Notes: generated by a model from the sequence alone, not told the origin. 64,000 nucleotides of DNA from Escherichia coli (GCF_017348835.2 NZ_CP071375.1), one strand, 5' to 3'; positions 17,709 through 64,000 are shown, counted from the stretch's first letter. Translations and numbers: made by a program.

Positions 17709-17728
17709 AATTGTTATAACCCATATAA

Positions 17729-17754
17729 GGGCACCAGAAATGGTGCCTTTTTTA
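17729..17754 (+). terminator. Rho-independent terminator after J (ggcacc-agaaat-ggtgcc plus T6)
   Basis: Hairpin plus T-run read in sequence. Confidence 0.6.
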
Positions 17755-17777
17755 TTGCAGAAAAGCGAGAGGTAATT

Positions 17778-18441: not shown

Positions 18442-21402
18442 ATGGCAGTAAAGATTTCAGGTGTACTGAAAGACGGCACAGGAAAACCGGTACAGAACTG
18501 CATAATCCAGCTGAAAGCAAAACGTAACAGCACCACGGTGGTGGTGAACACGCTGGCCTCAGAAAATCCGGATGAAGCCGGGCGTTACAGCATGGACGTT
18601 GAGTACGGTCAGTACAGCGTTATTCTGTTGGTGGAGGGATTCCCGCCGTCACATGCCGGGACCATCACCGTGTATGAAGATTCTCAACCCGGTACGCTGA
18701 ATGATTTTCTCGGTGCCATGACGGAGGATGATGCCCGTCCGGAGGCACTGCGTCGTTTTGAACTGATGGTGGAAGAGGTGGCGCGTAACGCGTCCGTGGT
18801 GGCACAGAACACGGCAGCCGCAAAGAAGTCAGCCAGTGATGCCAGCACATCTGCCAGTGAGGCGGCAACCCGTGCGACTGATGCTGCAGATTCAGCACGT
18901 GCAGCCAGCACGTCAGCCGGACAGGCCGCGTCGTCGGCTCAGTCAGCGTCTTCCAGCGCAGGAACGGCATCAGCAAAAGCCTCTGAGGCATCAAAAAGTG
19001 CTGCCGCTGCAGAGTCCTCAAAAAGCGCGGCGGCTACCAGTGCCGGTGCGGCGAAAACGTCAGAAACGAATGCGGCAGCGTCAGAACAATCAGCCGCCAC
19101 TTCTGCATCCACCGCGACCACGAAAGCGTCAGAAGCTGCCACCTCAGCCCGGGATGCGGCGGCCTCAAAAGAGGCGGCAAAATCATCAGAAACGAGCGCA
19201 GCCTCGAGCGCCAGTAATGCCGCTTCCTCGGCAACGGCGGCAGGAAATTCCGCGAAGGCGGCAAAGACGTCTGAGACAAACGCTAAGTCCTCTGAAACGG
19301 CAGCAGCACAGAGTGCCTCCGCAGGCGCAGACTCAAAAACAGCGGCTGCATCATCTGCCAGCGCCGCGTCAACAAGTGCCGGGCAGGCCTCAGCCAGTGC
19401 CACCGCTGCCGGAAAGTCGGCAGAAAGTGCCGCATCGTCTGCTTCAACAGCCACAACGAAGGCTGGCGAAGCCACTGAACAGGCCAGCGCAGCAGCGAGT
19501 TCTGCTTCCGCAGCGAAGACATCCGAAACGAACGCGAAAGCGTCGGAAACCAGCGCAGAATCCTCAAAAACTGCTGCCGCATCGTCAGCCAGTTCGGCGG
19601 CGTCATCGGCATCATCTGCGTCTGCTTCAAAAGATGAGGCGACCAGACAAGCGTCAGCAGCGAAGAGCAGCGCCACGACGGCATCCACGAAGGCGACAGA
19701 GGCAGCTGGCAGTGCGACGGCGGCAGCTCAGAGCAAAAGTACGGCGGAATCCGCGGCAACGCGCGCCGAGACAGCGGCAAAACGGGCAGAGGATATTGCA
19801 TCCGCCGTGGCGCTTGAAGATGCGAGCACGACGAAAAAGGGGATAGTACAGCTCAGCAGTGCGACTAACAGCACTTCCGAGTCACTGGCGGCAACGCCAA
19901 AAGCAGTTAAGTCCGCGTATGACCTGGCTAACGGGAAATACACCGCACAGGATGCAACGACAGCACAGAAAGGGATAGTTCAGCTCAGCAGCGCGACCAA
20001 CAGCACATCTGAAATGCTGGCGGCAACGCCAAAGTCGGTAAAGGCAGCCTATGACCTTGCTAACGGGAAATATACCGCTCAGGACGCTACGACAGCACAA
20101 AAAGGAATTATCCAGCTCAGTAGTGCAACCAACAGCGCATCTGAAACGCTTGCCGCGACACCGAAAGCAGTGAAAGCAGCTAATGATAATGCGAATGGTC
20201 GGGTACCTTCTGCCCGTAAGGTGAATGGTAAGGCGCTTTCAGCGGATATAACACTGACGCCGAAAGATATTGGTACGCTTAACTCAACAACAATGTCATT
20301 CAGCGGTGGTGCTGGTTGGTTCAAATTAGCAACGGTAACCATGCCACAGGCGAGTTCTGTTGTTTCAATTACGTTGATTGGTGGCGCGGGATTTAACGTG
20401 GGGTCACCTCAACAGGCAGGTATATCTGAACTTGTTTTGCGTGCAGGTAATGGTAATCCGAAGGGGATTACTGGTGCTTTATGGCAGCGCACATCGACAG
20501 GGTTTACAAATTTTGCCTGGGTCAATACATCTGGTGATACTTACGATATTTACGTTGCAATCGGAAATTATGCGACTGGTGTAAATATTCAATGGGATTA
20601 TACCAGTAATGCCAGCGTGACTATTCATACGTCACCAGCATATTCTGCTAATAAGCCGGAAGGGTTAACGGACGGTACAGTTTATTCACTCTATACGCCA
20701 TCAGAGCAGTTTTATCCGCCTGGCGCACCAATCCCGTGGCCATCAGATACCGTTCCGTCTGGTTATGCCCTGATGCAGGGGCAGACTTTTGACAAATCTG
20801 CATACCCGAAACTTGCAGCCGCTTATCCGTCAGGCGTGATCCCTGATATGCGTGGCTGGACGATTAAGGGCAAACCCGCCAGTGGTCGTGCCGTATTGTC
20901 TCAGGAACAGGACGGCATTAAATCGCACACCCACAGCGCCAGCGCATCCAGTACGGATTTGGGGACGAAAACCACATCGTCGTTTGATTACGGCACTAAA
21001 TCCACGAATAACACCGGGGCTCATACGCACAGTCTGAGCGGCTCTACAAGCTCGGCCGGAGCACACTCGCACGTTGATGGTCGCAGGTTTAATACAAGCA
21101 CTTTTAAAGACACCTATCAGTATGGTTCTACAGCTGTCGGAAGTAACTCATACCAGGTACAAGGGGCGGTTGGTCTGGGCATTGGCACGATGGCGAATAC
21201 GAACTCTGCTGGCGCGCATACCCACTCACTGTCCGGCACTGCTGCAAGCGCAGGTGCACACGCACATACTGTCGGTATTGGTGCTCATACGCACTCCGTT
21301 GCGATTGGCTCACATGGACACACCATCACCGTTAACGCTGCTGGTAACGCGGAAAACACCGTCAAAAACATCGCATTTAACTATATTGTGAGGCTTGCAT
21401 AA
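18442..21402 (+). CDS. stf: Side tail fibre protein
   Basis: 986 aa: ~330-aa Ala/Ser/Thr-rich low-complexity segment, three tandem 44-aa tail fibre repeats, His-rich distal part with GAHTHS motifs. Confidence 0.9.
19819..20214 (+). repeat. Three tandem 132-bp coding repeats inside stf (phage tail fibre repeat)
   Basis: Unit [44 protein letters not shown] repeated at 19819, 19951 and 20083. Confidence 0.85.
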
Positions 21403-21986
21403 TGGCATTCAGAATGAGTGAACAAGCACGGACCATAAAAATTTATAATCTGCTGGCCGGAACTAATGAATTTATTGGTGAAGGTGATGCATATATTCCG
21501 CCTCATACAGGTCTGCCAGCAAACAGTACCGATATTGCACCACCAGATATTCCTGCTGGCTTTGTGGCTGTTTTCAACAGTGATGAGGCATCGTGGCATC
21601 TCGTTGAAGACCATCTGGGTAAAACGGTTTATGACGTAGCGTCAGGGGACGAGTTATTTATTTCTGAACTCGGTCCGTTACCGGAAAATGTTACCTGGTT
21701 ATCGCCGGAAGGGGAGTTTCAGAAGTGGAACGGCACAGCCTGGGTGAAAGATGCAGAAGCAGAAAAACTGTTCCGGATCCGAGAGGCGGAAGAAATAAAA
21801 AACAGCCTGATGCAGGTAGCCAGTGAGCATATTGCGCCACTTCAGGATGCTGTAGATCTGGAAATCGCAACGGAGGAAGAAACCTCATTGTTGGAAGCCT
21901 GGAAAAAGTATCGGGTGTTGCTGAACCGTGTTGATACATCAACTGCACCTGATATTGAGTGGCCTACGAATCCTGTCAGGGAGTAA
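21402..21986 (+). CDS. tfa: Tail fibre assembly chaperone
   Basis: 194 aa beginning [17 protein letters not shown]; start overlaps the stf stop (TAATG). Confidence 0.9.
21821..21941 (+). repeat. Direct repeat copy A (3' part of tfa)
   Basis: ~88 percent identical to 22870-22990, including a 40-nt identical core. Confidence 0.8.
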
Positions 21987-48812: not shown

Positions 48813-49243
48813 TTATGTTGGCGTTTTCTATTCAGTATAGAAGTGGGAGCGGCCAGGCGAGATGCGGAAGTTCTGGAATGTTTCTTTTTTTGGTGATGGT
48901 GACTGAAGCAATTTGGCTACTTTTGCAATGTGACAAGTTATGGCACGGCTGGCTGGTGGCGAAGAATTTTGATGATTGGGGCGCGCAGAATAAAACTGGC
49001 TCAGCTTCAGTTGATCAAATGAGGAGTGAGAAGTCCGAAACAAGACTCACTGTATAAATAAACAGCTATTTTATTGAGGAAGGGTAAGATAACGGCGGGT
49101 GCCTGAAGCTTTCCGGTTTCAGGTTAACTCTGAGGTCTGGAAAGATGAAGCCCCAGGAGATATTTCTATCAACCCTGGGGCTACCTACCCAAACCTGAAC
49201 AATTTGGATGGTAGTCCCTTCTTCGCATGGAGGCAATATAAAC

Positions 49244-49396
49244 ATGCTGACGAAATATGCCCTTGTGGCAGTCATAGTGCTGTGTTTGACAGTGCTGGGA
49301 TTTACGCTTCTGGTCGGAGACTCGTTGTGTGAGTTTACGGTGAAGGAACGTAATATTGAGTTCAGGGCTGTTCTCGCTTACGAACCGAAGAAGTAG
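49244..49396 (+). CDS. hokE: Type I toxin HokE (Hok/Gef family)
   Basis: 50 aa [50 protein letters not shown]; the track ORF has an in-frame upstream extension from 49208. Confidence 0.88.
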
Positions 49397-49517
49397 CCGT
49401 TGTGCGGGGAGCAATCCCCGCATATCCGGTTGTCAGGTCAGAGTGGTAAGGCACCTGCTTTACACTTTCGCCCGCAGTCAGTGATGGCTGCGGGCGAATC
49501 GTACCAGATGTTGTCAA

Positions 49518-50147
49518 TTAATCGTGTTGGCACAGAGTTATGACTATTTTTTCTTTTATCTGCCAGTGCACAGCAAACATCTCATTCTCACGATGAATGA
49601 TGACCTGCTGTTTATTCCAGCTAATTATCTGATAGTCCAGAAAACCTGCATCAGTTTGGATCTCACTTGCCTTAAATGCGCTCTCTTTGGCGGAAAATGC
49701 CAGTGTCAGCGCCAGAGAAAAGGCTAAACCGCAGTCAGCGAGTCGCTCGTGTTCTGCTGGTGTAATAATGTTGTCTGTCAATTCGGTCGCTGTTTGCGCA
49801 GAAAAAATTTCTTCGATATCAACGCCAATCGGTTGACGGGAAACCACGGCCAATGCCGTAGCCCCGCAGTGGCTAATACTGCCGTATACCTCCGCAGGCC
49901 ACACCGGTTGGCGTAGCTCGCCGATTGCGGGCACACATTTATAGCCATATTCCCGCAAGGCATAAACAGCAGCGATCCGTCCGGCTAAATGCTCCGTTTT
50001 ACGTTTACGTCCAGCGTGTTGCAGTTGTGCGTAGTGCGGCAGCCAGAGTAAATCCTGCTCACAAAAATTCGCCGGATCGAACTCAACAAAATGCAGCGTA
50101 TGTCCGGCAAAGGGGAGGGAGGTATGCGTAGTTTTCATATCGACCAT
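49518..50147 (-). CDS. entD: 4'-phosphopantetheinyl transferase EntD
   Basis: 209 aa from MVDMKTTHTSLPFAGH. Confidence 0.93.
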   Translation of the reverse strand: MVDMKTTHTSLPFAGHTLHFVEFDPANFCEQDLLWLPHYAQLQHAGRKRKTEHLAGRIAAVYALREYGYKCVPAIGELRQPVWPAEVYGSISHCGATALAVVSRQPIGVDIEEIFSAQTATELTDNIITPAEHERLADCGLAFSLALTLAFSAKESAFKASEIQTDAGFLDYQIISWNKQQVIIHRENEMFAVHWQIKEKIVITLCQHD

Positions 50148-50175
50148 ATTCGAGACTGATGACAAACGCAAAACT

Positions 50176-50275
50176 GCCTGATGCGCTACGCTTATCAGGC
50201 CTACGTGGTCCTGCAATATATTGAATTGGCAAGATTTTTGTAGGCCGGATAAGGCGTTCACGCCGCATCCGGCAT
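50176..50275. repeat. Pair of REP elements between entD and fepA
   Basis: gcctgatgcgctacgcttatcaggcctac and gtaggccggataaggcgttcacgccgcatccggca. Confidence 0.85.
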
Positions 50276-50312
50276 GAACGACGCGCACTTTGTCAACAAT
50301 CTGACGTTAGCA

Positions 50313-52553
50313 TCAGAAGTGAGTGTTTACGCTCATATACAACGTACGTCCCGGCTCGTTATAGGTATACGCCCCGGCACCGGCGATATAGTTGGCCCCT
50401 GCCAGATCGCCCGTGGTCTGGGCATTACCCGCACGCCACAAACGTTTGTCGAACAGGTTGTCCACGCCGCCGGTCAGACTGACATTCTTCGTCACATCCC
50501 AGGTCGCGCTCAGACCCACAATGCTGTAAGGACTGATTTCTTTGGTTTCCGGGCCAACCGCTGGCTGACCTTTATAGTTGTACTTCTTCGGCTGCTGCTT
50601 ACCGTACCAGGTGAAGGTCGTTTGCATCGACAAATCTTCTCGTGCCTGCCAGCTCAGCGTTGAGTTCAACGTATACTCCGGGATGATCGACAAACGGTCG
50701 CCCGTGGTTTTGTTTTCACTCTTCAGCATATAAGTGATGTTATTAGTCCACATCACCGTTTCGCTAACCGGTACGTTTAACGATCCTTCCAGACCTTCAA
50801 CCACCGCTTTCGGCACGTTATCCCACTGATAGAGATCGGTGCCGACTGCGTTTTGCCCTACAGCCACATAGCCCGCTTCAATCTTATTGCGATAATCGTT
50901 ACGGAACCAGGTGACGCCCGCCAGCCAGCCGTCGCGTTTGAACTCCAGACCAATCTCTTTGTTGATGCTGGTTTCCGCTTTCAGGTCATCATTACCTTGC
51001 AGATAGCAGCCGCCCGCGCTGGCATAGCAACCCTGACCTTTACTGTAGAGAATGTAGTTCGGGTTAGTCTGGTACAGGCTCGGCGCTTTATAAGCACGGG
51101 CAATGCCCATTTTCAGCGTGAAGTCATCGCCTAAACCTTGCGATATGTTCAGCGCCGGGCTCCAGTTATTGCCAACTATACTGTGATGATCGAAACGCAG
51201 CCCCGGCGTTACGATGGTGCTGTCAGTCAGCTCCATATTGTTTTCGGCAAACAGCGAGAAAATTTCTGCTTTTGAATACGGGCTACGGTCGGTGGCACTC
51301 ACGCCATCAATAGCGCCACCGGTATTCGTTCCGGTCAGTGCCTGGGTGTTGGAACTTAAGTCCTTCATCCGCTGCTGATTCCACTCCGTACCCAGCGTCA
51401 GCGTCTGGTTAACGAGGAAATCAATCGGCAGGTTAACTTCGCTGTGCAGCATCACGTCATCAAGATCGATATCGACGAAATCCTGTGTCGCTTTTTCGTT
51501 AAATTTCCCTTCGGTACCGCCCGCCAGACCTTCCGGAATACGCGAGTTACGGGTGTGTTCGTACTGCACCCAGTTGCTGGTGGTCACGCCGTTATCCCAG
51601 CCACCGTTCCAGGTCAGCGAGTAGTTCTGGCGATACAGGCGGTTGGTTTCATCGCCATATTTCGAGCGAGTGTAAGCGTCAGAGTTGGTGTTCTGGGTAT
51701 CGCCCGCATACAGGTTACCCTGGCGGCTGTAACCCGCTTCCAGTTCGAGTGATTGCAGAGGCGCGAAGTCCCAGCGCACCACGCCATTAATATCTTTGTT
51801 GATCACCCCTTCGCGCCCGGCTGGTAACGTCGTGGCATACGTTCCGGCACGCGCGGACTGATGGCCCTGGTTGATATCCCACGCGTCAGCCTGAGTTTTG
51901 TCGAGGTTGCCATACAAGCGGAAGCTGAATTCGTCGCCCAGCGGACCGGTCAGGCTAAAGTTAGTGCGTTTGGTGGCACCTTCCTCTTTATGTTCTGGCG
52001 CATTGAAATATGCGTCCCAGGAGCCGTGCCACTCGCCGCTGCCTTTTTTGGTAATGATGTTAACCACGCCGCCCGCCGCGCCGTTGCCGTAACGCGCAGC
52101 TGCCGGACCACGCAGAACTTCAATACGTTCAATCATTTCAGGTGGCACCCAGGAAGTATCACCACGGGTATCGCGCTCGCCACGCCAGCCCTGACGCACC
52201 GAGTTACGGCTGCTTACCGGTTTGCCGTCAATCAAAATTAGCGTGTTTTCCGGACCCATGCCGCGAATATCAATCTGTCGGTTATTCCCACGCTGACCAC
52301 TGGTGGAGTTACCGGTCAGGTTAACGCCTGGCATGGTACGGATGATCTCCGACACATCGCGGGCAACCGGGTTTTTGCGGATTTCATCTGCGGTGATGGT
52401 CGAAACGCCAGGCGCCTGTAAGTTCTGCTCGGCGGCGGTAACGACAATAGTATCGTCATGTGAAACAGGAGTATCGGTCGGCTCTTGTGCCTGCGCTACC
52501 CCATAAATCCCCAGATTGACCAACAAGGCCAGGGAATGAATCTTCTTGTTCAT
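50313..52553 (-). CDS. fepA: TonB-dependent ferric enterobactin receptor FepA
   Basis: 746 aa from MNKKIHSLALLVNLGIYGVAQA; ends ...YMSVNTHF. Confidence 0.95.
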   Translation of the reverse strand: MNKKIHSLALLVNLGIYGVAQAQEPTDTPVSHDDTIVVTAAEQNLQAPGVSTITADEIRKNPVARDVSEIIRTMPGVNLTGNSTSGQRGNNRQIDIRGMGPENTLILIDGKPVSSRNSVRQGWRGERDTRGDTSWVPPEMIERIEVLRGPAAARYGNGAAGGVVNIITKKGSGEWHGSWDAYFNAPEHKEEGATKRTNFSLTGPLGDEFSFRLYGNLDKTQADAWDINQGHQSARAGTYATTLPAGREGVINKDINGVVRWDFAPLQSLELEAGYSRQGNLYAGDTQNTNSDAYTRSKYGDETNRLYRQNYSLTWNGGWDNGVTTSNWVQYEHTRNSRIPEGLAGGTEGKFNEKATQDFVDIDLDDVMLHSEVNLPIDFLVNQTLTLGTEWNQQRMKDLSSNTQALTGTNTGGAIDGVSATDRSPYSKAEIFSLFAENNMELTDSTIVTPGLRFDHHSIVGNNWSPALNISQGLGDDFTLKMGIARAYKAPSLYQTNPNYILYSKGQGCYASAGGCYLQGNDDLKAETSINKEIGLEFKRDGWLAGVTWFRNDYRNKIEAGYVAVGQNAVGTDLYQWDNVPKAVVEGLEGSLNVPVSETVMWTNNITYMLKSENKTTGDRLSIIPEYTLNSTLSWQAREDLSMQTTFTWYGKQQPKKYNYKGQPAVGPETKEISPYSIVGLSATWDVTKNVSLTGGVDNLFDKRLWRAGNAQTTGDLAGANYIAGAGAYTYNEPGRTLYMSVNTHF

Positions 52554-52711
52554 TGTTTTATTCCTGCATTTTTGCCACGAATTGCAACTGTCGGGCATGG
52601 TCGTCATCAACACGACGCATCCCGCTACCGCGAAAACCTTTGATCCTGAAAGACACGCAGTGCAGTTGGTTAATTAATGTCCGCGCTTCCCACGGCGCGC
52701 CATTACGCTAT

Positions 52712-52748
52712 TGCAAATGCAAATAGTTATCAATAATATTATCAATAT
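52712..52748. promoter_or_regulatory. Fur box region in the fepA-fes divergent promoter
   Basis: tgcaaatgcaaatagttatcaataatattatcaatat, overlapping GATAAT-like hexamers. Confidence 0.7.
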
Positions 52749-52795
52749 ATTTCTGCAATCAATGAAAAATTGCACAGTAAACATGGGGTTATGGT

Positions 52796-53998
52796 GTGAC
52801 GGCGTTAAAAGTAGGAAGTGAGAGCTGGTGGCAGTCGAAACATGGCCCGGAATGGCAGCGTCTGAATGACGAAATGTTTGAGGTCACTTTCTGGTGGCGT
52901 GATCCCCAAGGTTCTGAAGAATACTCGACGATAAAGCGCGTATGGGTCTACATCACTGGTGTGACCGATCACCATCAGAACAGCCAGCCCCAGTCGATGC
53001 AGCGAATTGCAGGCACTAACGTCTGGCAGTGGACGACACAACTCAATGCCAACTGGCGCGGCAGCTACTGCTTTATTCCCACCGAACGCGATGACATTTT
53101 TTCTACACCATCCCCCGATCGCCTCGAATTACGTGAAGGCTGGCGAAAACTATTACCCCAGGCGATAGCCGATCCGCTGAATCCACAAAGCTGGAAAGGC
53201 GGGCGAGGGCACGCTGTTTCTGCACTCGAAATGCCGCAAGCGCCTCTGCAACCGGGATGGGATTGTCCGCAAGCGCCAGAAATACCAGCCAAAGAAATTA
53301 TCTGGAAAAGTGAACGGTTGAAAAATTCACGTCGTGTATGGATTTTTACCACCGGCGATGTAACAGCAGAAGAACGCCCGCTGGCAGTTTTGCTCGATGG
53401 CGAATTTTGGGCGCAAAGTATGCCCGTCTGGCCTGTGCTGACTTCGCTGACCCATCGTCAGCAACTTCCTCCCGCCGTGTATGTGTTGATCGACGCTATC
53501 GATACCACGCACCGCGCCCACGAACTGCCGTGTAATGCGGATTTCTGGCTCGCAGTACAGCAAGAGTTATTACCCCTGGTGAAAGCTATTGCCCCTTTTA
53601 GCGATCGTGCCGATCGCACCGTGGTTGCCGGGCAGAGTTTTGGTGGGCTTTCCGCGCTGTATGCCGGACTGCACTGGCCTGAACGCTTTGGCTGTGTATT
53701 AAGCCAGTCAGGATCGTACTGGTGGCCGCATCGGGGCGGGCAGCAAGAGGGCGTGTTACTTGAAAAGCTAAAAGCTGGTGAAGTTAGCGCCGAAGGTCTG
53801 CGCATTGTGCTGGAAGCGGGTATTCGCGAGCCGATGATCATGCGGGCCAATCAGGCGCTGTATGCGCAATTACACCCCATAAAAGAATCCATTTTCTGGC
53901 GTCAGGTTGACGGCGGACATGATGCGCTTTGTTGGCGCGGTGGCTTGATGCAGGGGCTAATCGACCTCTGGCAACCACTTTTCCATGACAGGAGTTGA
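52796..53998 (+). CDS. fes: Enterochelin esterase Fes
   Basis: 400 aa from GTG, MTALKVGSESWWQSKHGPEW. Confidence 0.93.
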   Translation: MTALKVGSESWWQSKHGPEWQRLNDEMFEVTFWWRDPQGSEEYSTIKRVWVYITGVTDHHQNSQPQSMQRIAGTNVWQWTTQLNANWRGSYCFIPTERDDIFSTPSPDRLELREGWRKLLPQAIADPLNPQSWKGGRGHAVSALEMPQAPLQPGWDCPQAPEIPAKEIIWKSERLKNSRRVWIFTTGDVTAEERPLAVLLDGEFWAQSMPVWPVLTSLTHRQQLPPAVYVLIDAIDTTHRAHELPCNADFWLAVQQELLPLVKAIAPFSDRADRTVVAGQSFGGLSALYAGLHWPERFGCVLSQSGSYWWPHRGGQQEGVLLEKLKAGEVSAEGLRIVLEAGIREPMIMRANQALYAQLHPIKESIFWRQVDGGHDALCWRGGLMQGLIDLWQPLFHDRS

Positions 53999-54000
53999 AT

Positions 54001-54219
54001 ATGGCATTCAGTAATCCCTTCGATGATCCGCAGGGAGCGTTTTACATATTGCGCAATGCGCAGGGGCAATTCAGTCTGTGGCCGCAACAATGCGTCTTAC
54101 CGGCAGGCTGGGACATTGTGTGTCAGCCGCAGTCACAGGCGTCCTGCCAGCAGTGGCTGGAAGCCCACTGGCGTACTCTGACACCGACGAATTTTACCCA
54201 GTTGCAGGAGGCACAATGA
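54001..54219 (+). CDS. ybdZ: MbtH-like protein YbdZ
   Basis: 72 aa from MAFSNPFDDPQGAFYILRNAQGQFSLWP. Confidence 0.9.
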   Translation: MAFSNPFDDPQGAFYILRNAQGQFSLWPQQCVLPAGWDIVCQPQSQASCQQWLEAHWRTLTPTNFTQLQEAQ

Positions 54220-57200
54220 GCCAGCATTTACCTTTGGTCGCCGCACAGCCCGGCATCTGGATGGCAGAAAAACTGTCAGAATTACCCTCCGCCTGGAGCG
54301 TGGCGCATTACGTTGAGTTAACCGGAGAGGTTGATGCGCCATTACTGGCCCGCGCGGTGGTTGCCGGACTAGCGCAAGCAGATACGCTGCGGATGCGTTT
54401 TACGGAAGATAACGGCGAAGTCTGGCAGTGGGTCGATGATGCGCTGATATTCGAACTGCCAGAAATTATCGACCTGCGATCCAATATTGATCCGCACGGT
54501 ACTGCGCAGGCATTAATGCAGGCGGATTTGCAACAAGATTTGCGCGTCGATAGCGGTAAACCACTGGTCTTTCATCAACTGATACAGGTGGCAGATAACC
54601 GCTGGTACTGGTATCAGCGTTACCACCATTTGCTGGTCGATGGCTTCAGTTTCCCGGCCATTACCCGCCAGATCGCCAATATTTACTGCGCATTGCTGCG
54701 TGGCGAACCAACGCCTGCTTCGCCGTTTACGCCTTTCGCTGATGTAGTGGAAGAGTACCAGCAATACCGCGAAAGCGAAGCCTGGCAGCGTGATGCGGCA
54801 TTCTGGGTGGAACAACGTCGTCAACTGCCGCCGCCCGCGTCACTTTCTCCGGCACCTTTACCGGGGCGCAGCGCTTCGGCAGATATTCTGCGCCTGAAAC
54901 TGGAATTTACTGACGGGGAATTCCGCCAGCTGGCTACGCAACTTTCAGGTGTGCAGCGTACCGATTTAGCCCTTGCGCTGGCGGCTTTGTGGCTGGGGCG
55001 ATTGTGCAACCGCATGGACTACGCTGCCGGATTTATCTTTATGCGTCGACTGGGCTCGGCGGCGCTGACGGCTACCGGACCCGTGCTCAACGTTATGCCG
55101 TTGGGTATTCACATTGCGGCGCAAGAAACGCTGCCGGAACTGGCAACCCGACTGGCAGCACAACTGAAAAAAATGCGTCGTCATCAACGTTACGATGCCG
55201 AACAAATTGTCCGTGACAGCGGGCGAGCGGCAGGTGATGAACCGCTGTTTGGTCCGGTACTCAATATCAAGGTATTTGATTACCAACTGGATATTCCTGA
55301 TGTTCAGGCGCAAACCCATACCCTGGCAACCGGTCCGGTTAATGACCTTGAACTGGCCCTGTTCCCGGATGAACACGGTGATTTGAGTATTGAGATCCTC
55401 GCCAATAAACAGCGTTACGATGAGCCAACGTTAATCCAGCATGCTGAACGCCTGAAAATGCTGATTGCCCAGTTCGCCGCGGATCCGGCGCTGTTGTGCG
55501 GCGATGTCGATATTATGCTGCCAGGTGAGTATGCGCAGCTGGCGCAGATCAACGCCACTCAGGTTGAGATTCCAGAAACCACGCTGAGCGCGCTGGTGGC
55601 AGAACAAGCGGCAAAAACACCGGATGCTCCGGCGCTGGCAGATGAGCGTTACCAGTTCAGCTATCGGGAAATGCGCGAGCAGGTGGTGGCGCTGGCGAAT
55701 CTGCTGCGTGAGCGCGGCGTTAAACCGGGCGACAGCGTGGCGGTGGCGCTACCGCGCTCGGTCTTTTTGACCCTGGCGCTACATGCGATTGTTGAAGCAG
55801 GTGCGGCCTGGTTACCGCTGGATACCGGCTATCCGGACGATCGCCTGAAAATGATGCTGGAAGATGCGCGTCCGTCGCTGTTAATCACCACCGACGATCA
55901 ACTGCCGCGCTTTGTTGATGTTCCAGATTTAACCAGCCTTTGCTATAACGCCCCGCTTACACCGCAGGGCAGTGCGCCGCTGCAACTTTCACAACCGCAT
56001 CACACGGCTTATATCATCTTTACCTCTGGCTCCACCGGCAGGCCGAAAGGGGTAATGGTCGGGCAGACGGCTATCGTCAACCGCCTGTTGTGGATGCAAA
56101 ATCATTATCCACTTACAGGCGAAGATGTCGTTGCCCAAAAAACGCCGTGCAGTTTTGATGTCTCGGTGTGGGAGTTTTTCTGGCCGTTTATTGCCGGGGC
56201 TAAACTGGTGATGGCTGAACCGGAAGCGCACCGCGACCCGCTCGCTATGCAGCAATTCTTTGCCGAATATGGCGTAACGACCACGCACTTTGTGCCGTCG
56301 ATGCTGGCGGCATTTGTTGCCTCGCTGACGCCGCAAACCGCTCGCCAGAGTTGCGCGACGTTGAAACAGGTTTTCTGTAGTGGTGAGGCCTTACCGGCTG
56401 ATTTATGCCGCGAATGGCAACAGTTAACCAGCGTGCCGTTGCATAATCTATATGGCCCGACGGAAGCGGCGGTAGATGTCAGCTGGTATCCGGCTTTTGG
56501 CGAGGAACTGGCACAGGTGCGCGGCAGCAGTGTGCCGATTGGTTATCCGGTATGGAATACGGGTCTGCGTATTCTTGATGCGATGATGCATCCGGTGCCG
56601 CCGGGTGTGGCGGGAGATCTCTATCTCACCGGTATTCAACTGGCGCAGGGGTATCTTGGACGACCCGATCTGACCGCCAGCCGTTTTATTGCCGATCCTT
56701 TTGCCCCAGGTGAACGGATGTATCGTACCGGAGACGTTGCCCGCTGGCTGGATAACGGCGCGGTGGAGTACCTCGGGCGCAGTGACGATCAGCTAAAAAT
56801 TCGCGGGCAGCGTATCGAACTGGGCGAAATCGATCGCGTGATGCAGGCGCTGCCGGATGTCGAACAAGCCGTTACCCACGCCTGTGTGATTAACCAGGCG
56901 GCAGCCACCGGTGGTGATGCGCGTCAGTTGGTGGGCTATCTGGTGTCGCAATCAGGTCTGCCGTTGGATACCAGCGCATTACAGGCACAGCTTCGCGAAA
57001 CATTGTCGCCGCATATGGTGCCGGTCGTTCTGCTGCAACTTCCACAGTTACCTCTTAGCGCCAACGGCAAGCTGGATCGCAAAGCCTTACCGTTGCCTGA
57101 ACTTAAGGCACAAACGCCGGGGCGTGCGCCGAAAGCGGGCAGTGAAACGATTATCGCTGCGGCATTCGCGTCGTTGCTGGGTTGTGACGTGCAGGATGCC

Positions 57201-58097
57201 GATGCTGATTTCTTCGCGCTTGGCGGTCATTCGCTACTGGCAATGAAACTGGCAGCGCAGTTAAGTCGACAGTTTGCTCGTCAGGTGACGCCGGGGCAGG
57301 TGATGGTCGCGTCAACTGTCGCCAAACTGGCAACGATTATTGATGGTGAAGAGGACAGCGCCCGGCGCATGGGATTCGAAACCATTCTGCCGTTGCGTGA
57401 AGGTAATGGCCCGACGCTGTTTTGTTTCCACCCGGCATCCGGTTTTGCCTGGCAGTTCAGCGTGCTCTCGCGTTATCTCGATCCACTATGGTCGATTATC
57501 GGCATTCAGTCGCCGCGCCCTCATGGCCCCATGCAGACAGCGACGAACCTGGATGAAGTCTGCGAAGCGCATCTGGCAACGTTACTTGAACAACAACCGC
57601 ACGGCCCTTATTACCTGCTGGGGTATTCCCTTGGCGGTACGCTGGCGCAGGGCATTGCGGCGCGACTACGTGCCCGTGGCGAACAGGTGGCATTTCTTGG
57701 CTTGCTGGATACCTGGCCGCCAGAAACGCAAAACTGGCAGGAAAAAGAAGCTAATGGTCTGGACCCGGAAGTGCTGGCGGAGATTAACCGCGAGCGCGAG
57801 GCCTTCCTGGCGGCACAGCAGGGAAGTACTTCAACGGAGTTGTTTACCACCATTGAAGGCAACTACGCTGATGCTGTGCGCCTGCTGACGACTGCTCATA
57901 GCGTACCGTTTGACGGTAAAGCGACGTTGTTTGTTGCTGAACGCACGCTTCAGGGAGGTATGAGTCCTGAACGCGCCTGGTCGCCGTGGATTGCGGAGCT
58001 GGATATCTATCGTCAGGATTGTGCGCATGTGGATATTATCTCTCCAGGGGCATTTGAAAAAATTGGGCCGATTATTCGCGCAACGCTAAACAGATAA
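54216..58097 (+). CDS. entF: Enterobactin non-ribosomal peptide synthetase EntF (C-A-PCP-TE)
   Basis: 1293 aa from MSQHLPLVAAQPGIWMAEKL; motifs HHLLVDG, FTSGSTGRPKGV, YGPTE, YRTGD, GRSDDQLKIRG, FFALGGHSL, GYSLGG. Confidence 0.95.
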   Translation: MSQHLPLVAAQPGIWMAEKLSELPSAWSVAHYVELTGEVDAPLLARAVVAGLAQADTLRMRFTEDNGEVWQWVDDALIFELPEIIDLRSNIDPHGTAQALMQADLQQDLRVDSGKPLVFHQLIQVADNRWYWYQRYHHLLVDGFSFPAITRQIANIYCALLRGEPTPASPFTPFADVVEEYQQYRESEAWQRDAAFWVEQRRQLPPPASLSPAPLPGRSASADILRLKLEFTDGEFRQLATQLSGVQRTDLALALAALWLGRLCNRMDYAAGFIFMRRLGSAALTATGPVLNVMPLGIHIAAQETLPELATRLAAQLKKMRRHQRYDAEQIVRDSGRAAGDEPLFGPVLNIKVFDYQLDIPDVQAQTHTLATGPVNDLELALFPDEHGDLSIEILANKQRYDEPTLIQHAERLKMLIAQFAADPALLCGDVDIMLPGEYAQLAQINATQVEIPETTLSALVAEQAAKTPDAPALADERYQFSYREMREQVVALANLLRERGVKPGDSVAVALPRSVFLTLALHAIVEAGAAWLPLDTGYPDDRLKMMLEDARPSLLITTDDQLPRFVDVPDLTSLCYNAPLTPQGSAPLQLSQPHHTAYIIFTSGSTGRPKGVMVGQTAIVNRLLWMQNHYPLTGEDVVAQKTPCSFDVSVWEFFWPFIAGAKLVMAEPEAHRDPLAMQQFFAEYGVTTTHFVPSMLAAFVASLTPQTARQSCATLKQVFCSGEALPADLCREWQQLTSVPLHNLYGPTEAAVDVSWYPAFGEELAQVRGSSVPIGYPVWNTGLRILDAMMHPVPPGVAGDLYLTGIQLAQGYLGRPDLTASRFIADPFAPGERMYRTGDVARWLDNGAVEYLGRSDDQLKIRGQRIELGEIDRVMQALPDVEQAVTHACVINQAAATGGDARQLVGYLVSQSGLPLDTSALQAQLRETLSPHMVPVVLLQLPQLPLSANGKLDRKALPLPELKAQTPGRAPKAGSETIIAAAFASLLGCDVQDADADFFALGGHSLLAMKLAAQLSRQFARQVTPGQVMVASTVAKLATIIDGEEDSARRMGFETILPLREGNGPTLFCFHPASGFAWQFSVLSRYLDPLWSIIGIQSPRPHGPMQTATNLDEVCEAHLATLLEQQPHGPYYLLGYSLGGTLAQGIAARLRARGEQVAFLGLLDTWPPETQNWQEKEANGLDPEVLAEINREREAFLAAQQGSTSTELFTTIEGNYADAVRLLTTAHSVPFDGKATLFVAERTLQGGMSPERAWSPWIAELDIYRQDCAHVDIISPGAFEKIGPIIRATLNR

Positions 58098-58112
58098 ATT
58101 AACATTATCTAT

Positions 58113-58145
58113 AAACCCATAATTGCAGGAAATAATTATGGGTTT
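58113..58145 (+). terminator. Hairpin downstream of entF
   Basis: aaacccataatt-gcaggaaat-aattatgggttt in an AT-rich tract. Confidence 0.55.
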
Positions 58146-58312
58146 ATCATTTATTTAATTTATAAGGTTGCTGGTTATTTTTCTTAAATAGAGTGAATGT
58201 TGCATTCAGTGGAATGAATTTACAAACTTCAGCTTCGGATAATTCTCACCAACTGGTAAAGTGAGCGCCGTGGAGATTTCCCCCTATTGGACTCATTTTC
58301 AGGTTATACCCC

Positions 58313-59446
58313 ATGTCATCACTGAATATTAAACAGGGAAGTGACGCTCATTTTCCCGATTATCCTCTGGCGTCGCCCAGTAATAATGAAATTGATTTAC
58401 TTAATCTAATCTCAGTTTTATGGCGGGCCAAAAAAACGGTCATGGCGGTCGTTTTTGCGTTTGCCTGCGCAGGCTTGCTGATCTCTTTCATCCTGCCGCA
58501 AAAATGGACCAGCGCGGCGGTTGTCACGCCTCCAGAACCTGTTCAGTGGCAAGAGTTGGAGAAAACATTCACTAAGCTTCGTGTGCTGGATCTGGATATC
58601 AAAATTGATCGTACAGAAGCATTTAACCTGTTTATCAAGAAGTTTCAGTCGGTTAGCTTGCTGGAAGAGTACCTGCGTTCATCACCTTATGTGATGGACC
58701 AATTAAAAGAGGCGAAAATCGACGAACTGGATTTGCATCGCGCTATTGTCGCATTGAGCGAAAAAATGAAAGCGGTTGATGACAATGCCAGTAAGAAAAA
58801 AGATGAACCGTCACTGTATACCTCCTGGACGCTAAGTTTTACCGCGCCAACCAGTGAAGAGGCGCAGACCGTTTTGAGCGGGTATATCGATTATATCTCT
58901 GCGTTGGTGGTGAAAGAGTCGATAGAAAACGTCCGTAATAAACTGGAGATCAAAACCCAGTTTGAAAAAGAAAAACTGGCTCAGGACCGCATTAAAATGA
59001 AAAATCAACTTGATGCAAACATTCAGCGCCTCAATTATTCACTCGACATTGCCAACGCGGCAGGAATTAAAAAGCCCGTTTACAGTAATGGTCAGGCCGT
59101 TAAAGATGACCCCGATTTCTCTATTTCTCTCGGCGCAGACGGTATTGAACGCAAACTGGAAATTGAAAAAGCGGTCACTGACGTTGCGGAACTGAACGGT
59201 GAATTACGTAATCGTCAGTATCTTGTTGAGCAGTTAACAAAAGCAAATATCAACGATGTGAATTTTACGCCGTTTAAATATCAGTTAAGCCCGTCATTGC
59301 CAGTGAAAAAAGACGGTCCGGGTAAGGCGATTATTGTGATCCTTTCCGCGCTGATCGGCGGGATGGTGGCTTGTGGTAGCGTGTTATTGCGCTATGCGAT
59401 GGCATCCAGAAAGCAGGATGCCATGATGGCAGACCACTTAGTTTAA
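58313..59446 (+). CDS. fepE: Polysaccharide co-polymerase-like chain length regulator FepE
   Basis: 377 aa with N- and C-terminal TM segments. Confidence 0.92.
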   Translation: MSSLNIKQGSDAHFPDYPLASPSNNEIDLLNLISVLWRAKKTVMAVVFAFACAGLLISFILPQKWTSAAVVTPPEPVQWQELEKTFTKLRVLDLDIKIDRTEAFNLFIKKFQSVSLLEEYLRSSPYVMDQLKEAKIDELDLHRAIVALSEKMKAVDDNASKKKDEPSLYTSWTLSFTAPTSEEAQTVLSGYIDYISALVVKESIENVRNKLEIKTQFEKEKLAQDRIKMKNQLDANIQRLNYSLDIANAAGIKKPVYSNGQAVKDDPDFSISLGADGIERKLEIEKAVTDVAELNGELRNRQYLVEQLTKANINDVNFTPFKYQLSPSLPVKKDGPGKAIIVILSALIGGMVACGSVLLRYAMASRKQDAMMADHLV

Positions 59447-60258
59447 CTATTTGCGGTTGAAGGTGCCGTTCGTCCGAGCGGCACCACAAGCGGCGTTCCG
59501 GCTACCGGATCGTCAATGATCATGCATCGCAGACCATAAATGCGCTCAATCAGTTCAGCAGTGACAATCTCCTTCGGCGCTCCCTGAGCAACAATTTTCC
59601 CTTCTCGCAATGCAATCAAATGGCTGGCGTAACGACAGGCCTGATTAAGATCGTGCAGCACCGCCGCCAGGGTATAGCCTTTCTCGCGGTTCAGTTCGCT
59701 TAACAGTTCCAGCAAATCAATCTGATGACTGATATCCAGCCAGGTCGTGGGTTCGTCGAGCAGCATAATTGCCGTTTCCTGGGCCAGCACCATCGCGATC
59801 CACGCGCGCTGGCGTTGTCCGCCAGAAAGGGTATCCACGCTTTGATCTGCCAGATGAGTTATTCCCGTGGCCTGCATCGCTTTCGTTACCGCTTCTTCAT
59901 CTTCTTTGCGCCAGCGGGTAAACAGCGGTTGATGCGGATAACGCCCACGCGCCACCAGCTCCTGCACGGTGATATCACCCGGCGTGGTAGCATTTTGCGC
60001 CAACAGACCAATCCGCCGGGCAACTTCTTTACTGGCGTAATGTTGAATGTGCTCGCCATCCAGCCAGACATGCCCGTGAGCAGGCGTCATCAGGCGGCTT
60101 AAGGTACGCAGCAACGTGGATTTACCGCAGCCATTTGGCCCGATAATTGCCGTGAAGTGACCATCAGGTATTTCTACAGTCAGATTTTCCGCAACGGTAT
60201 ATTTGCCATATCCCAGGGTTAACTGTTCGCCGCGCAAACGGGCTACTGATTCGGTCAT
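59443..60258 (-). CDS. fepC: Ferric enterobactin ABC transporter ATPase FepC
   Basis: 271 aa from MTESVARLRGE; Walker A GPNGCGKST, signature LSGGQRQR. Confidence 0.95.
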   Translation of the reverse strand: MTESVARLRGEQLTLGYGKYTVAENLTVEIPDGHFTAIIGPNGCGKSTLLRTLSRLMTPAHGHVWLDGEHIQHYASKEVARRIGLLAQNATTPGDITVQELVARGRYPHQPLFTRWRKEDEEAVTKAMQATGITHLADQSVDTLSGGQRQRAWIAMVLAQETAIMLLDEPTTWLDISHQIDLLELLSELNREKGYTLAAVLHDLNQACRYASHLIALREGKIVAQGAPKEIVTAELIERIYGLRCMIIDDPVAGTPLVVPLGRTAPSTANS

Positions 60259-61247
60259 TTTTTGCGAGACTCCTGAATTAACAAGACGATAAGGTAAATA
60301 CCGCCGAGGCTGACGGTAACGACGCCAACCGGAAGTTGATACGGCATAAACAGTTGTTGGGCGCAGAGATCGGCCGCCAGCAGTAACAGCGCCCCGCACA
60401 GCGCCGCCTGGGTTAGCCCCCAGCGAGCGGTGCCGCTAATGCGTCGGGCAATGTGCGGCGCGACTAAAGCAATAAAGGAAATCGGCCCGGCAAGCGCCGT
60501 TGCCGCAGCGGTAAGCACCACTGCAACCAGCATCATTAACAGACGCGAACGTTCGACGCTGACGCCCAGCGCGCAGGCGGTATCATCGCCCATCTCCAGC
60601 AAGCGCATTCGCCGCACCAGCAAGGTGGCGGCAATGAGCATCAATATAATGATGGGTGCGGAAGGCGAGGTTTTTGCCCACGTCAGGCCGTTGAGCGATC
60701 CGGCATTCCACAAACCCGCTGTTAGCGCCGTTTCTAAAGACGCTTTCAGCAACAGCCAGGTATTAAAGGCCACCAGCATGGCGCGAACACCGATACCGAT
60801 AATAATCAACCGAAAGGTGTCGATGCCGTTACGCCAGGCGAGCAGCCAGACCAGAAGCGAAGTGACAATGCCGCCCACCATTGCTGACAGCGCGATAGCC
60901 GTCAGGTCCTGACCAAACAGCACCATCGCCACCAGCACGCCGCTCCACGCCCCGGTGTTAAAGCCCATTACGTCAGGGCTGCCGAGCGGGTTACGCATCA
61001 GCGACTGAAAAATCGCGCCGCTGACGCCCAGCGCCGCGCCAATCAACAACGCCATCAGCACGCGTGGTAAACGCCATTCGGTGACCACCATCGTCATACT
61101 GCGCGGCGCATCGCCCATCAACGCGGCGAATACCTGCGAGGTTTCCAGCGTGACGGCACCGCTGCGTAATCCCCAGATACCTGCAACCACACAGGCGGAA
61201 ATCAGCAGCAAACAGGTGATGAGTAATCGGCGAGAGACGTAAATCAT
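60255..61247 (-). CDS. fepG: Ferric enterobactin ABC transporter permease FepG
   Basis: 330 aa polytopic. Confidence 0.95.
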   Translation of the reverse strand: MIYVSRRLLITCLLLISACVVAGIWGLRSGAVTLETSQVFAALMGDAPRSMTMVVTEWRLPRVLMALLIGAALGVSGAIFQSLMRNPLGSPDVMGFNTGAWSGVLVAMVLFGQDLTAIALSAMVGGIVTSLLVWLLAWRNGIDTFRLIIIGIGVRAMLVAFNTWLLLKASLETALTAGLWNAGSLNGLTWAKTSPSAPIIILMLIAATLLVRRMRLLEMGDDTACALGVSVERSRLLMMLVAVVLTAAATALAGPISFIALVAPHIARRISGTARWGLTQAALCGALLLLAADLCAQQLFMPYQLPVGVVTVSLGGIYLIVLLIQESRKK

Positions 61248-62248
61248 GCACCACCTCGCGTTTTACGTCGCACGAGGAAGATTAGCACCGGTGCACCAAT
61301 AAACGCACTGACCACAGAAACGCGCAACTCGCCGGGCACAATCACCCGCCCGATGATATCGGCAAACAGCAGCAGGGCAGGGGTGGCGAGTAGCGTGACG
61401 GGCAGCGACCAGCGATGATCGGCACCTACCAGCCAGCGCGCCATGTGCGGCATCATCAGGCCAATAAAGGCAATCGGGCCAACTACCGCCGTCGCACTAC
61501 CACAAAGCACGGTAATCGCCAGCAGACCAATCAACTGTGTGCGCGCCACGCGACTGCCCAGCGCCGTCGCGGTGTCGCTGCCAAGGCTTAAACTGTTCAG
61601 CGCGCGACTCAGTAATAGCGCAGTTGCTCCGGCGATCAGCACCGGGATCAGCACCACTTTTAAGGTGTGCAGATTACGAATATCCAGCGAACCGGCTTGC
61701 CAGAAACGCAGTTGATCGTAGACGTCAGGATTAAGCAGGGCGATGCCGCTGGTCAGCCCTTCCAGCACCGCCGCCAGCGCTACGCCCGCCAGGGTTAAAC
61801 GCACCGGACTTAACTGCCCGCCGCCCTGGCTGCCGGTAAAGGCAACAATCAACGAGGCCACCAGCGCCCCGGCGAAGGCCATCGCCAGTTGTTCCTGTGC
61901 GGAAGAGTAACCAAACAGCGCCGCACCCAGCACAATGGCAAAGCTGGCTCCGGCGTTCACGCCAAGCAAGCCGGGGTCGGCAAGTGGGTTTCGGGTGAGG
62001 GTTTGCATTAACGCCCCGGCAAGCCCAAGCGCACCGCCTGCAAGTAAACCGGCAAGGGTGCGCGGCAGTCGCGCGTCAAGCACGATGGTGCAGTCGGCGC
62101 TCTGGCAGGTGCCGGAGAGGGCCTCCAGCACTACGGAAGCGGGGAGTGATTTTGCCCCAATGAGCAGGCTTAATGCCGTCGCGATAATCAGTAATAACAG
62201 CAATCCGGGCACGGCAATGGCGCGTGTCACGGCAACAGAACCAGACAT
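61244..62248 (-). CDS. fepD: Ferric enterobactin ABC transporter permease FepD
   Basis: 334 aa from MSGSVAVTRA; the track ORF starts 4 codons upstream. Confidence 0.93.
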   Translation of the reverse strand: MSGSVAVTRAIAVPGLLLLLIIATALSLLIGAKSLPASVVLEALSGTCQSADCTIVLDARLPRTLAGLLAGGALGLAGALMQTLTRNPLADPGLLGVNAGASFAIVLGAALFGYSSAQEQLAMAFAGALVASLIVAFTGSQGGGQLSPVRLTLAGVALAAVLEGLTSGIALLNPDVYDQLRFWQAGSLDIRNLHTLKVVLIPVLIAGATALLLSRALNSLSLGSDTATALGSRVARTQLIGLLAITVLCGSATAVVGPIAFIGLMMPHMARWLVGADHRWSLPVTLLATPALLLFADIIGRVIVPGELRVSVVSAFIGAPVLIFLVRRKTRGGA

Positions 62249-62260
62249 ACGAACTTCCAT

Positions 62261-62285
62261 GATAATGAAATTAATTATCGTTATC
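62261..62285. promoter_or_regulatory. Fur box in the fepD-entS divergent promoter
   Basis: gataatgaaattaattatcgttatc. Confidence 0.75.
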
Positions 62286-62358
62286 GATCTTATTTGGATA
62301 TGTTAGCATGTGCAGCCTAAGAATAGGTATTTAAAATATTTGATGGCAAGGCATTGTA

Positions 62359-63609
62359 ATGAATAAACAATCCTGGCTGCTTAACCTCAGCCTGTTGAAA
62401 ACGCACCCGGCGTTTCGCGCAGTATTCCTCGCTCGTTTCATCTCTATTGTTTCTCTGGGTTTGCTCGGCGTCGCGGTGCCGGTGCAGATCCAGATGATGA
62501 CGCATTCTACCTGGCAGGTGGGGCTTTCGGTGACGCTGACCGGCGGCGCGATGTTTGTTGGCCTGATGGTCGGCGGTGTGCTGGCGGATCGCTATGAGCG
62601 CAAAAAAGTGATTTTGCTGGCGCGCGGCACCTGTGGCATTGGCTTCATTGGACTGTGCCTGAATGCGCTGTTGCCGGAGCCGTCATTGCTGGCAATCTAT
62701 TTACTTGGTTTATGGGATGGTTTTTTCGCATCGCTTGGCGTTACGGCGCTACTGGCGGCGACACCAGCACTGGTAGGGCGTGAAAACTTAATGCAGGCCG
62801 GGGCGATCACCATGTTGACCGTGCGTCTGGGGTCGGTGATTTCGCCCATGATTGGCGGTTTACTGCTGGCGACTGGCGGCGTGGCCTGGAACTACGGGCT
62901 GGCGGCGGCGGGCACGTTTATTACCTTGCTACCGTTGTTAAGCCTTCCGGCACTGCCACCGCCACCGCAGCCGCGTGAGCATCCGTTGAAATCATTACTG
63001 GCAGGATTTCGTTTTCTGCTCGCCAGCCCGCTGGTAGGAGGGATTGCGCTGCTGGGTGGTTTATTGACGATGGCGAGCGCGGTGCGGGTACTGTATCCGG
63101 CGCTGGCTGACAACTGGCAGATGTCAGCGGCACAGATTGGTTTTCTCTACGCGGCGATCCCGCTCGGCGCGGCTATTGGTGCGTTAACCAGCGGGAAGCT
63201 GGCACATAGTGCACGACCAGGGTTATTGATGCTGCTCTCCACGCTGGGATCGTTCCTCGCCATTGGTCTGTTTGGCCTGATGCCGATGTGGATTTTAGGC
63301 GTGGTTTGTCTGGCGCTGTTCGGCTGGCTGAGCGCGGTCAGCTCGTTGCTGCAATACACAATGCTGCAAACGCAAACCCCGGAAGCGATGTTAGGGCGGA
63401 TTAACGGTTTGTGGACGGCACAAAACGTGACGGGCGATGCCATAGGCGCGGCGCTGCTGGGCGGTTTGGGAGCGATGATGACACCGGTTGCTTCCGCAAG
63501 CGCGAGCGGTTTTGGTTTGTTGATTATCGGCGTGTTGTTATTGCTGGTGCTGGTGGAGTTACGGCGTTTTCGCCAGACGCCGCCGCAGGTGACAGCGTCC
63601 GACAGTTAA
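62359..63609 (+). CDS. entS: Enterobactin exporter EntS (MFS)
   Basis: 416 aa from [23 protein letters not shown]. Confidence 0.95.
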
Positions 63610-63612
63610 TGC

Positions 63613-64000
63613 TTAAAACAGCGCCTTAAGCCTATCCAGCACTTGCATGGCGCTGTAGTAATCCAGACGGAATGTCTCGGTTCCCAGCGCATAAACCTGC
63701 TTGTTTTGTACTGCAGGTAGATGCGCGAGCAGCGGATTAGCATAAATAGCATCGGCGTCTTTCTGATCACCGGCGAACAGGAATAGCGATTCACCGTTTA
63801 ACCCAGCAGCCAGATTTTCCCCACCAAGCTGAATGATGTCATGGCGTTTACCCTGGCTTTGGCTGGCATTTAACCCTGCGGGTAACTTCGCCAGCGTAAA
63901 GCCGAGTTGTTCCAGCATCTGCCCTTGTGCTGATTCCGGCGTCCAGAGATTGGCACTGTGTGCAGCGGCAGTATAGACAATGGCAGTGACCGGCTGCGGC
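63613..64000 (-). CDS. fepB: Periplasmic ferric enterobactin binding protein FepB, 3' part only (5' end beyond window)
   Basis: Minus-strand frame ends ...[19 protein letters not shown] and stays open to the window edge. Confidence 0.85.

Follow-up and report, generated by a model that had tools for sequence, protein, structure and literature searches.

A stretch of 64,000 nucleotides from Escherichia coli (NZ_CP071375.1; hereafter the window, with positions counted from its first letter) carries between 49518 and 64000 what we are almost certain is an ordinary, intact enterobactin (ent/fep/fes) cluster under the control of Fur. The window covers the left two-thirds of the standard E. coli cluster in the order entD-fepA / fes-ybdZ-entF-fepE / fepCGD / entS / fepB, with fepB truncated by the window end. 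A first-pass annotation made from the sequence had called this organisation canonical, and the order, orientation and lengths of the genes are indeed those of K-12 b0583-b0592. Gene content and reading frames were observed directly: all ten complete open reading frames lack internal stops and have the same lengths as in K-12, and expected Pfam domains are present in all ten proteins. Nucleotide substitutions relative to K-12 far outnumber amino acid substitutions (17 and none in fepC, 27 and one in entS), which argues that these are functional genes under purifying selection. In all respects tested, the locus was known before, its elements having long been described from K-12, and it has little significance beyond the quality of annotation; by its gene complement, the isolate has a complete and presumably functional enterobactin system.

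The control regions are even closer to K-12 than the genes are. An alignment to K-12 MG1655 that begins at the IS186 junction between hokE and entD, covers 15.2 kb and ends shortly after fepB has no indels and an identity of 97.7%. The flanking genes differ by about 1-3%, while the 242-bp fepA-fes and 110-bp fepD-entS intergenic regions have no mismatches to K-12. Of 5416 complete E. coli genomes, 5278 carry the fepD-entS region at 99% identity or more. Because the regulatory DNA is identical, decades of Fur data from K-12 transfer directly; the footprints, gel shift, chromatin immunoprecipitation (ChIP), derepression in delta-fur cells, and promoter and start positions cited below come from the literature on that same K-12 sequence and would apply here by identity.

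To locate Fur boxes, we scanned both strands of the 64 kb with the 19-bp consensus GATAATGATAATCATTATC and compared the counts with those from 30 composition-preserving shuffles. The top match in the window, GATAATGAAATTAATTATC at 62261-62279, lies between fepD and entS and agrees with the consensus at 16 of 19 positions, a score reached in none of the 30 shuffles. A second, overlapping site shifted by 6 bp (62267-62285) agrees at 15 of 19. In K-12, a Fur DNase I footprint was reported at NC_000913.2 621394-621462 (Chen et al. 2007, Table 3). Its strongest site, 621437, is separated from the start of fepD by 25 bp and from that of entS by 86 bp, and a gel shift with Fur was shown in the same work (Chen et al. 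2007). Subtracting 559164 from the NC_000913.2 coordinate gives the window position, an offset that we checked against the distances to gene starts listed by Chen et al. 2007 in Table 4. The mapped fepD/entS operator thus occupies 62230-62298, and its strongest site falls at 62273, which is also the centre of the Fur box that the first-pass annotation had placed at 62261-62285; that box contains the best consensus match and lies inside the K-12 footprint. The Fur cluster in this region was described as lying between the predicted promoters and the translation starts (Chen et al. 2007), and a candidate fepD promoter, TTGCCA-18-TATTCT at 62349-62320 on the minus strand, would be compatible with that description. 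Outside Escherichia, the comparison is limited to one partial Kosakonia locus, since the other retrieved loci end before fepD-entS; in this genome, from Kosakonia oryziphila, the fepD/entS box is conserved, with GATAATGATAGTAATTATCGTTATCGAT at the equivalent position.

The operator between fepA and fes has a poorer match to the consensus, with the best single site (52713-52731) agreeing at only 13 of 19 positions. Its distinguishing feature is the arrangement of sites: nowhere else in the 64 kb do four sites stand in 6-bp register, here with scores of 13, 12, 12 and 12 at 52713, 52719, 52725 and 52731, and arrays of three in-register sites were obtained in just 5.5% of shuffles. Such in-register 6-bp clustering was noted at every footprinted Fur region (Chen et al. 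2007). The fepA/fes footprint, given as NC_000913.2 611868-611915 (Chen et al. 2007, Table 3), maps through an alignment with no mismatches to 52704-52751 and encloses the Fur-box-like sequence that had been proposed at 52712-52748. The only other array of three in-register sites in the window (12/12/12) is located at 34650-34680 near the 5' end of nfrB, and it is probably a chance occurrence in AT-rich coding DNA.

We then assessed the conservation of the fepA/fes operator across genera. Loci were retrieved from a collection with one genome per species by using a DNA pattern for the FepA TonB box (DDTIVVTAA), which is independent of the Fur box. A divergent fes was found upstream of fepA in 18 enterobacterial loci with enough upstream sequence. 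Identity of the Fes N-termini is 44% in Brenneria and 51-68% in Pseudescherichia, Enterobacter, Phytobacter, Kosakonia, Siccibacter and Franconibacter. The fepA-fes intergenic length is 185-304 bp outside Brenneria and 363 bp in Brenneria, where the operator region differs and the alignment anchor is absent. In all non-Brenneria loci, GCAAATG(C/A)AAAT..TTATCAATAATATTATC occurs at -82 to -86 bp relative to the fes start. In the cross-genus alignment, identity to the window is 91% over the footprint columns as compared with 49% for the remaining fepA-fes spacer, and the operator core at 52704-52742 is invariant or nearly so among 14 distinct sequences from seven genera. We accept the fepA/fes box despite its score of 13/19 on the combined strength of the four-site array, the footprint sequence identical to K-12 and the cross-genus conservation. 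An operator that scores poorly over 19 bp, yet is invariant and bound by Fur in K-12, is a caution for scans that depend on consensus alone.

Published data also bear on the promoters at these operators. The fepA sigma-70 promoter, TTGCAG-14-TATTAT at 52733-52758 on the minus strand (-35 at 52758-52753 and -10 at 52738-52733), lies within the Fur operator. Its hexamers come from the ROSE paper, a genome-wide study of 5' ends in vitro and in vivo, in which the start appeared in vitro and in delta-fur cells but not otherwise; our consensus scan picked the same -10 (TATTAT). The start points of fepA and fes were reported to be 19 bp apart, with promoters that overlap almost completely. Across nine E. 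coli strains, ChIP-exo and delta-fur expression data place the ent and fep genes within a 36-gene Fur core regulon. ChIP-seq for Fur together with lacZ fusions confirmed fepA-entD, and fes, fepDGC and entS were listed as strongly repressed. The cluster has been described as six operons transcribed from three Fur-controlled bidirectional regions, and the third of these, fepB/entC, is located about 600-800 bp past the window end. A test for the absence of control by Fur or iron at these promoters exists, in effect, for the identical K-12 sequence; regulation was found there, and the same would be expected here.

Taken together with the gene functions, this suggests the following model. When iron is plentiful, Fe2+-Fur dimers would occupy the overlapping hexamer arrays at 52704-52751 and 62230-62298. 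Each operator would overlap a pair of back-to-back sigma-70 promoters, fepA-entD / fes-ybdZ-entF in one case and fepDGC / entS in the other, and all four transcription units would thus be shut off together; when iron is scarce, Fur would leave and the genes would be expressed. EntD would then attach the phosphopantetheine arm to EntF (and EntB), and EntF with the MbtH-like YbdZ would activate serine, condense it with dihydroxybenzoate and carry out cyclotrimerisation on its thioesterase domain. Enterobactin would be exported by EntS, the ferric complex re-imported through FepA, FepB and FepDGC, and iron released by Fes through hydrolysis of that complex.

Between entD and fepA, two repetitive extragenic palindromic (REP) elements had been annotated at 50176-50275, and both can now be typed. 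The left arm, at 50176-50204 on the plus strand, is a z-type REP with inverted-repeat arms that ends in CTAC and matches GCCTGATGCGCTACGCTTATCAGGCCTAC exactly, where no match is expected by chance; at 29 nt it is slightly below the 30-40 nt of the REP definition. The right arm is a y-type REP on the minus strand (50240-50273, starting with GTAG on the plus strand) that matches GCCGGATGCGGCGTGAACGCCTTATCCGGCCTAC exactly, again with no chance match expected. The CTAC and GTAG ends of both REPs face a 35-bp linker at 50205-50239 and there is no tandem repetition. Within the linker, ATTCAATATATTG (50214-50226, minus strand) has one mismatch to the consensus for integration host factor (IHF), WATCAANNNNTTR; about 0.02 such matches are expected for a stretch of this size, and we regard it as a putative site where IHF may contact the DNA. 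A single-copy, inverted pair of z and y REPs with a long IHF-binding linker defines a type 1 bacterial interspersed mosaic element (BIME-1), and the long linker pairs with z1 (Ton-Hoang et al. 2012). The REP pair is one BIME-1-type element. On account of that pairing, a Z2 label for the left arm was dropped, and the arm is given here simply as z-type (z1 or z2). The element is extragenic, between the entD start and the fepA stop, and in 5425 of 5426 E. coli genomes the 111-bp stretch that contains it recurs at no fewer than 40 places. In the sense of fepA-entD transcription, the RNA of the fepA-entD spacer folds at -70.4 kcal/mol (z = -5.6). The BIME-1 would be part of the fepA-entD transcript, where, by analogy with REP elements in general, it most probably forms stable RNA hairpins, with the effect that the fepA message upstream is protected and entD is expressed at a relatively lower level.

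EntF has the full set of motifs for a condensation, adenylation, peptidyl carrier protein and thioesterase (C-A-PCP-TE) module, as had been annotated, with the four domains in order and all core motifs and catalytic serines present. The condensation domain has the C3 motif HHLLVDG at residue 137. The adenylation motifs are TSGSTGRPK (603), NLYGPTE (744), YRTGD (836), GRSDDQLKIRG (854) and PLSANGKLDR (946). The carrier motif LGGHSL identifies Ser1006 as the phosphopantetheine attachment residue, and the thioesterase motif GYSLG identifies Ser1138 as catalytic. The accompanying description of an MbtH-like ybdZ overlapping the start of entF also agrees with our reading: Pfam assigns the YbdZ protein to MbtH (4e-21), and the ybdZ stop and entF start share ATGA at 54216-54219. 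Since, in addition, ybdZ starts only 3 bases past the fes stop with AGGAG located within the fes 3' end, the three genes fes, ybdZ and entF are arranged for translational coupling.

No observation contradicts the reading of the two promoter regions as Fur operators and of the repeat as a modulator of the fepA-entD message. Some points are to be set against it. On its own, the 13/19 match at fepA/fes is near chance, as the window has 22 sites that score at least 13/19 against about 6 expected from shuffles. The sigma-70 consensus scan did not yield an excess of promoter-like sites (9 against 11.2 expected from shuffles), so the placement of promoters rests on the literature; with counts no higher than in shuffles, we dropped the sigma-70 and terminator scan as promoter evidence except where it agrees with published hexamers. 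Fur binding and repression are known from K-12 and eight other strains and would be expected in this isolate, and the footprint coordinates were obtained second-hand through Chen et al. 2007. As for the BIME, its influence on the fepA:entD ratio would follow from general REP biology. Taking the first of these points to its limit, the Fur-box-like strings could be chance features of AT-rich promoter DNA, such as -10 or UP-like sequences, instead of operators. The low fepA/fes score favours this, as do the intragenic location of most of the 22 sites and the presence of AT-rich arrays elsewhere, for example the one in nfrB. Against it, both sites lie within published Fur footprints on identical sequence, and fepD-entS DNA is gel-shifted by Fur; the fepA/fes core hardly varies across seven genera, in contrast to 49% identity in the neighbouring intergenic DNA; and the fepA start appears only without Fur, with the genes included in the ChIP-exo core regulon. 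We therefore give the chance explanation next to no credence. A different alternative concerns the repeat, where Rfam ES036 (CssrF) matches 50197-50238 on the minus strand with 42.2 bits, above the gathering score of 37.6, and overlaps the BIME linker. The sequence between the REPs could on this basis be a free-standing small RNA with its own function, and the match is on the strand from which fepA-entD is transcribed. The matched sequence, however, is exactly the conserved BIME-1 linker plus the feet of the REPs and shares the genome-wide copy number of the repeat; no promoter-like site was found for this stretch in the consensus scan; and, as it lies inside an operon transcript, RNA reads would map there regardless. 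A separate small RNA is accordingly very improbable, and we rejected the match as a genuine small RNA gene because its copy number fits the BIME linker. The number of places at which the ES036 sequence occurs means that this Rfam family appears to model a dispersed repeat and not a single-locus gene.

The remaining alternative accepts Fur at fepA/fes and asks whether Fur acts alone. Adjoining the operator on the fepA side, in the fepA 5' leader, is a GC-rich inverted repeat (CGCGC-N8-GCGCG, 52682-52701, minus strand) that was absent from the first-pass annotation. It is 77-94% conserved across the seven genera, as opposed to a mean of 49% for the rest of the spacer, and so nearly matches the Fur box in this respect. 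The block lies about 25-45 nt downstream of the expected start of the published fepA promoter, and just upstream of it in the fepA sense is an invariant TTGATA-17-TAGCGT that could be the second of two tandem fepA promoters. Work by Hunt and colleagues in 1994 reportedly described two tandem fepA promoters, as well as mutations outside the promoter determinants that lowered the expression of both genes; the block was possibly already within reach of that mutagenesis. The conservation, the inverted repeat with one compensatory change in its stem (in Kosakonia arachidis) and these reported observations suggest that the block might be a second cis-element, whether a 5' stabilising hairpin, the start region of a second fepA promoter or a site for another regulator. 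On the opposite side, the covariation is not significant, with 165 of 500 shuffles doing as well; the stem is broken in Kosakonia oryziphila; and the fepA leader as a whole is no more stably folded than its shuffles (z = -0.29). We rejected the block as a hairpin supported by covariation. More simply, it may correspond to the second fepA promoter already known, or to the start region of that promoter. Overall, we consider control by such a second element unlikely, and it supplements rather than replaces Fur control as the explanation of this region. More doubtful still is the specific proposal that the block, conserved from Escherichia to Franconibacter, is an undescribed element, either a hairpin that stabilises the 5' end of a second fepA transcript or a site used by a second regulator; if this were true, it would tune the expression of fepA and fes independently of Fur.

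Gene coordinates within the Fur-controlled cluster were converted to window positions from the Prokaryotic Genome Annotation Pipeline annotation of E. coli F2_81 (NZ_CP043542.1), a strain isolated from a pig rectal swab in Australia (record NZ_CP043542.1). Over 49400-64000, the window and the F2_81 chromosome are equal at 14,600 of 14,601 bases, and the sole difference, at 57866, is a synonymous TAC/TAT change in entF codon 1217. On the minus strand, entD (49518-50138) encodes the 206-aa phosphopantetheinyl transferase that primes EntB and EntF (Pfam 4PPT_N and ACPS; four amino acids different from K-12), and fepA (50313-52553) encodes the 746-aa TonB-dependent outer-membrane receptor for ferric enterobactin (Plug and TonB_dep_Rec_b-barrel). 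These are followed on the plus strand by fes (52796-53998), which has a GTG start and encodes the 400-aa enterobactin esterase (Enterochelin_N and Esterase); ybdZ (54001-54219), whose 72-aa MbtH-like product is identical to that of K-12; and entF (54216-58097), which encodes a nonribosomal peptide synthetase (NRPS) module of 1293 aa (Condensation, AMP-binding, PP-binding and Thioesterase). Also on the plus strand, fepE, or wzz(fepE), at 58313-59446 has a Pfam Wzz domain and is now annotated as a Wzz-family O-antigen chain-length regulator and not as an enterobactin gene, though it lies inside the cluster. The fepDGC operon (59443-62248, minus strand) encodes an ATP-binding cassette (ABC) importer and consists of fepC for the ATPase (59443-60258; ABC_tran) and the permease genes fepG (60255-61247; FecCD) and fepD (61244-62248; FecCD), with 4-bp overlaps between neighbouring genes. 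The plus-strand entS (62359-63609) encodes the enterobactin exporter of the major facilitator superfamily (416 aa). The 3' part of fepB, for the periplasmic binding protein, extends from 63613 to the cut at 64000 on the minus strand, and the full gene corresponds to 17214-18170 of the sequence L001 taken from the F2_81 record.

Divergence from K-12 is uneven along the cluster, with 1.0% in fes, none in ybdZ, 3.0% in entF and 3.4% in entD. Identity of at least 99% over the whole 14.6 kb was found in only 9 of 5,426 complete E. coli genomes, and the next best, O55:H7 and O157:H7, are at 98.3%. This pattern of uneven divergence and few near-identical genomes suggests a rare lineage or a recombination mosaic. 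The stretch most divergent from K-12 is the entF-fepE spacer (58098-58312), with 16 of 215 bases different (7.4%); 14 of the differences are in the first ~90 bp around a hairpin, and the 130 bp next to fepE hardly differ from K-12. Directly after the entF stop at 58111-58147, on the plus strand, is a terminator-like, AT-rich 15-bp hairpin with a T-rich tail. Upstream of the cluster, the window begins with lambdoid prophage structural genes from terminase to tail fibre (about 1-24400), followed by ompT, envY, nfrAB, cusRS/cusCFBA, pheP, ybdG and nfsB. Rfam matches to IS009 and the ALIL pseudoknot occur in this upstream part (21745-21943 and 27007-27123). Just before entD, at 49097-49396, is the hokE/sokE type I toxin-antitoxin locus (Rfam sok, 87 bits; hokE at 49244-49396).

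As a whole, the locus shares with the K-12 MG1655 cluster (entD-fepA-fes-ybdZ-entF-fepE-fepCGD-entS-fepB) its gene order, orientation, lengths and 4-bp overlaps. One difference is that K-12 has IS186 between hokE and entD, whereas the window has an empty GGGG-N-CCCC target at about 49407-49418; the unoccupied target is the GGGGAGCAATCCCC hairpin. Past the window end, the Fur-controlled fepB-entC spacer is 374 bp in K-12 and 188 bp in F2_81 (L001 18171-18358). The fepB leader region of K-12 contains an extra 186-bp GC-rich repeat of the ccctcaccc...gggagaggg type (around 19553-19738 of the K-12 sequence L002) that is absent from F2_81. The BIME region differs from K-12 at 1 of 174 bases, and the element agrees with BIME-1 (RIP/RIB) in the inverse z/y pair, the 35-bp linker with an IHF-like site, the single copy at the locus and the repetition throughout the genome. 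EntF and YbdZ correspond to a type I NRPS termination module with an MbtH-like partner, sharing the domain order, the core motifs and the coupled upstream MbtH-like gene; relative to K-12 EntF, there are 26 amino acid substitutions, none at catalytic residues. In comparison with the classical Fur operators at fepA-fes, fepD-entS and fepB-entC, both sites in the window are in-register arrays that overlap or abut divergent promoters as they do in K-12, and while the fepA/fes operator fits the consensus less well than the fepD/entS operator (13/19 and 16/19), neither differs from its K-12 counterpart.

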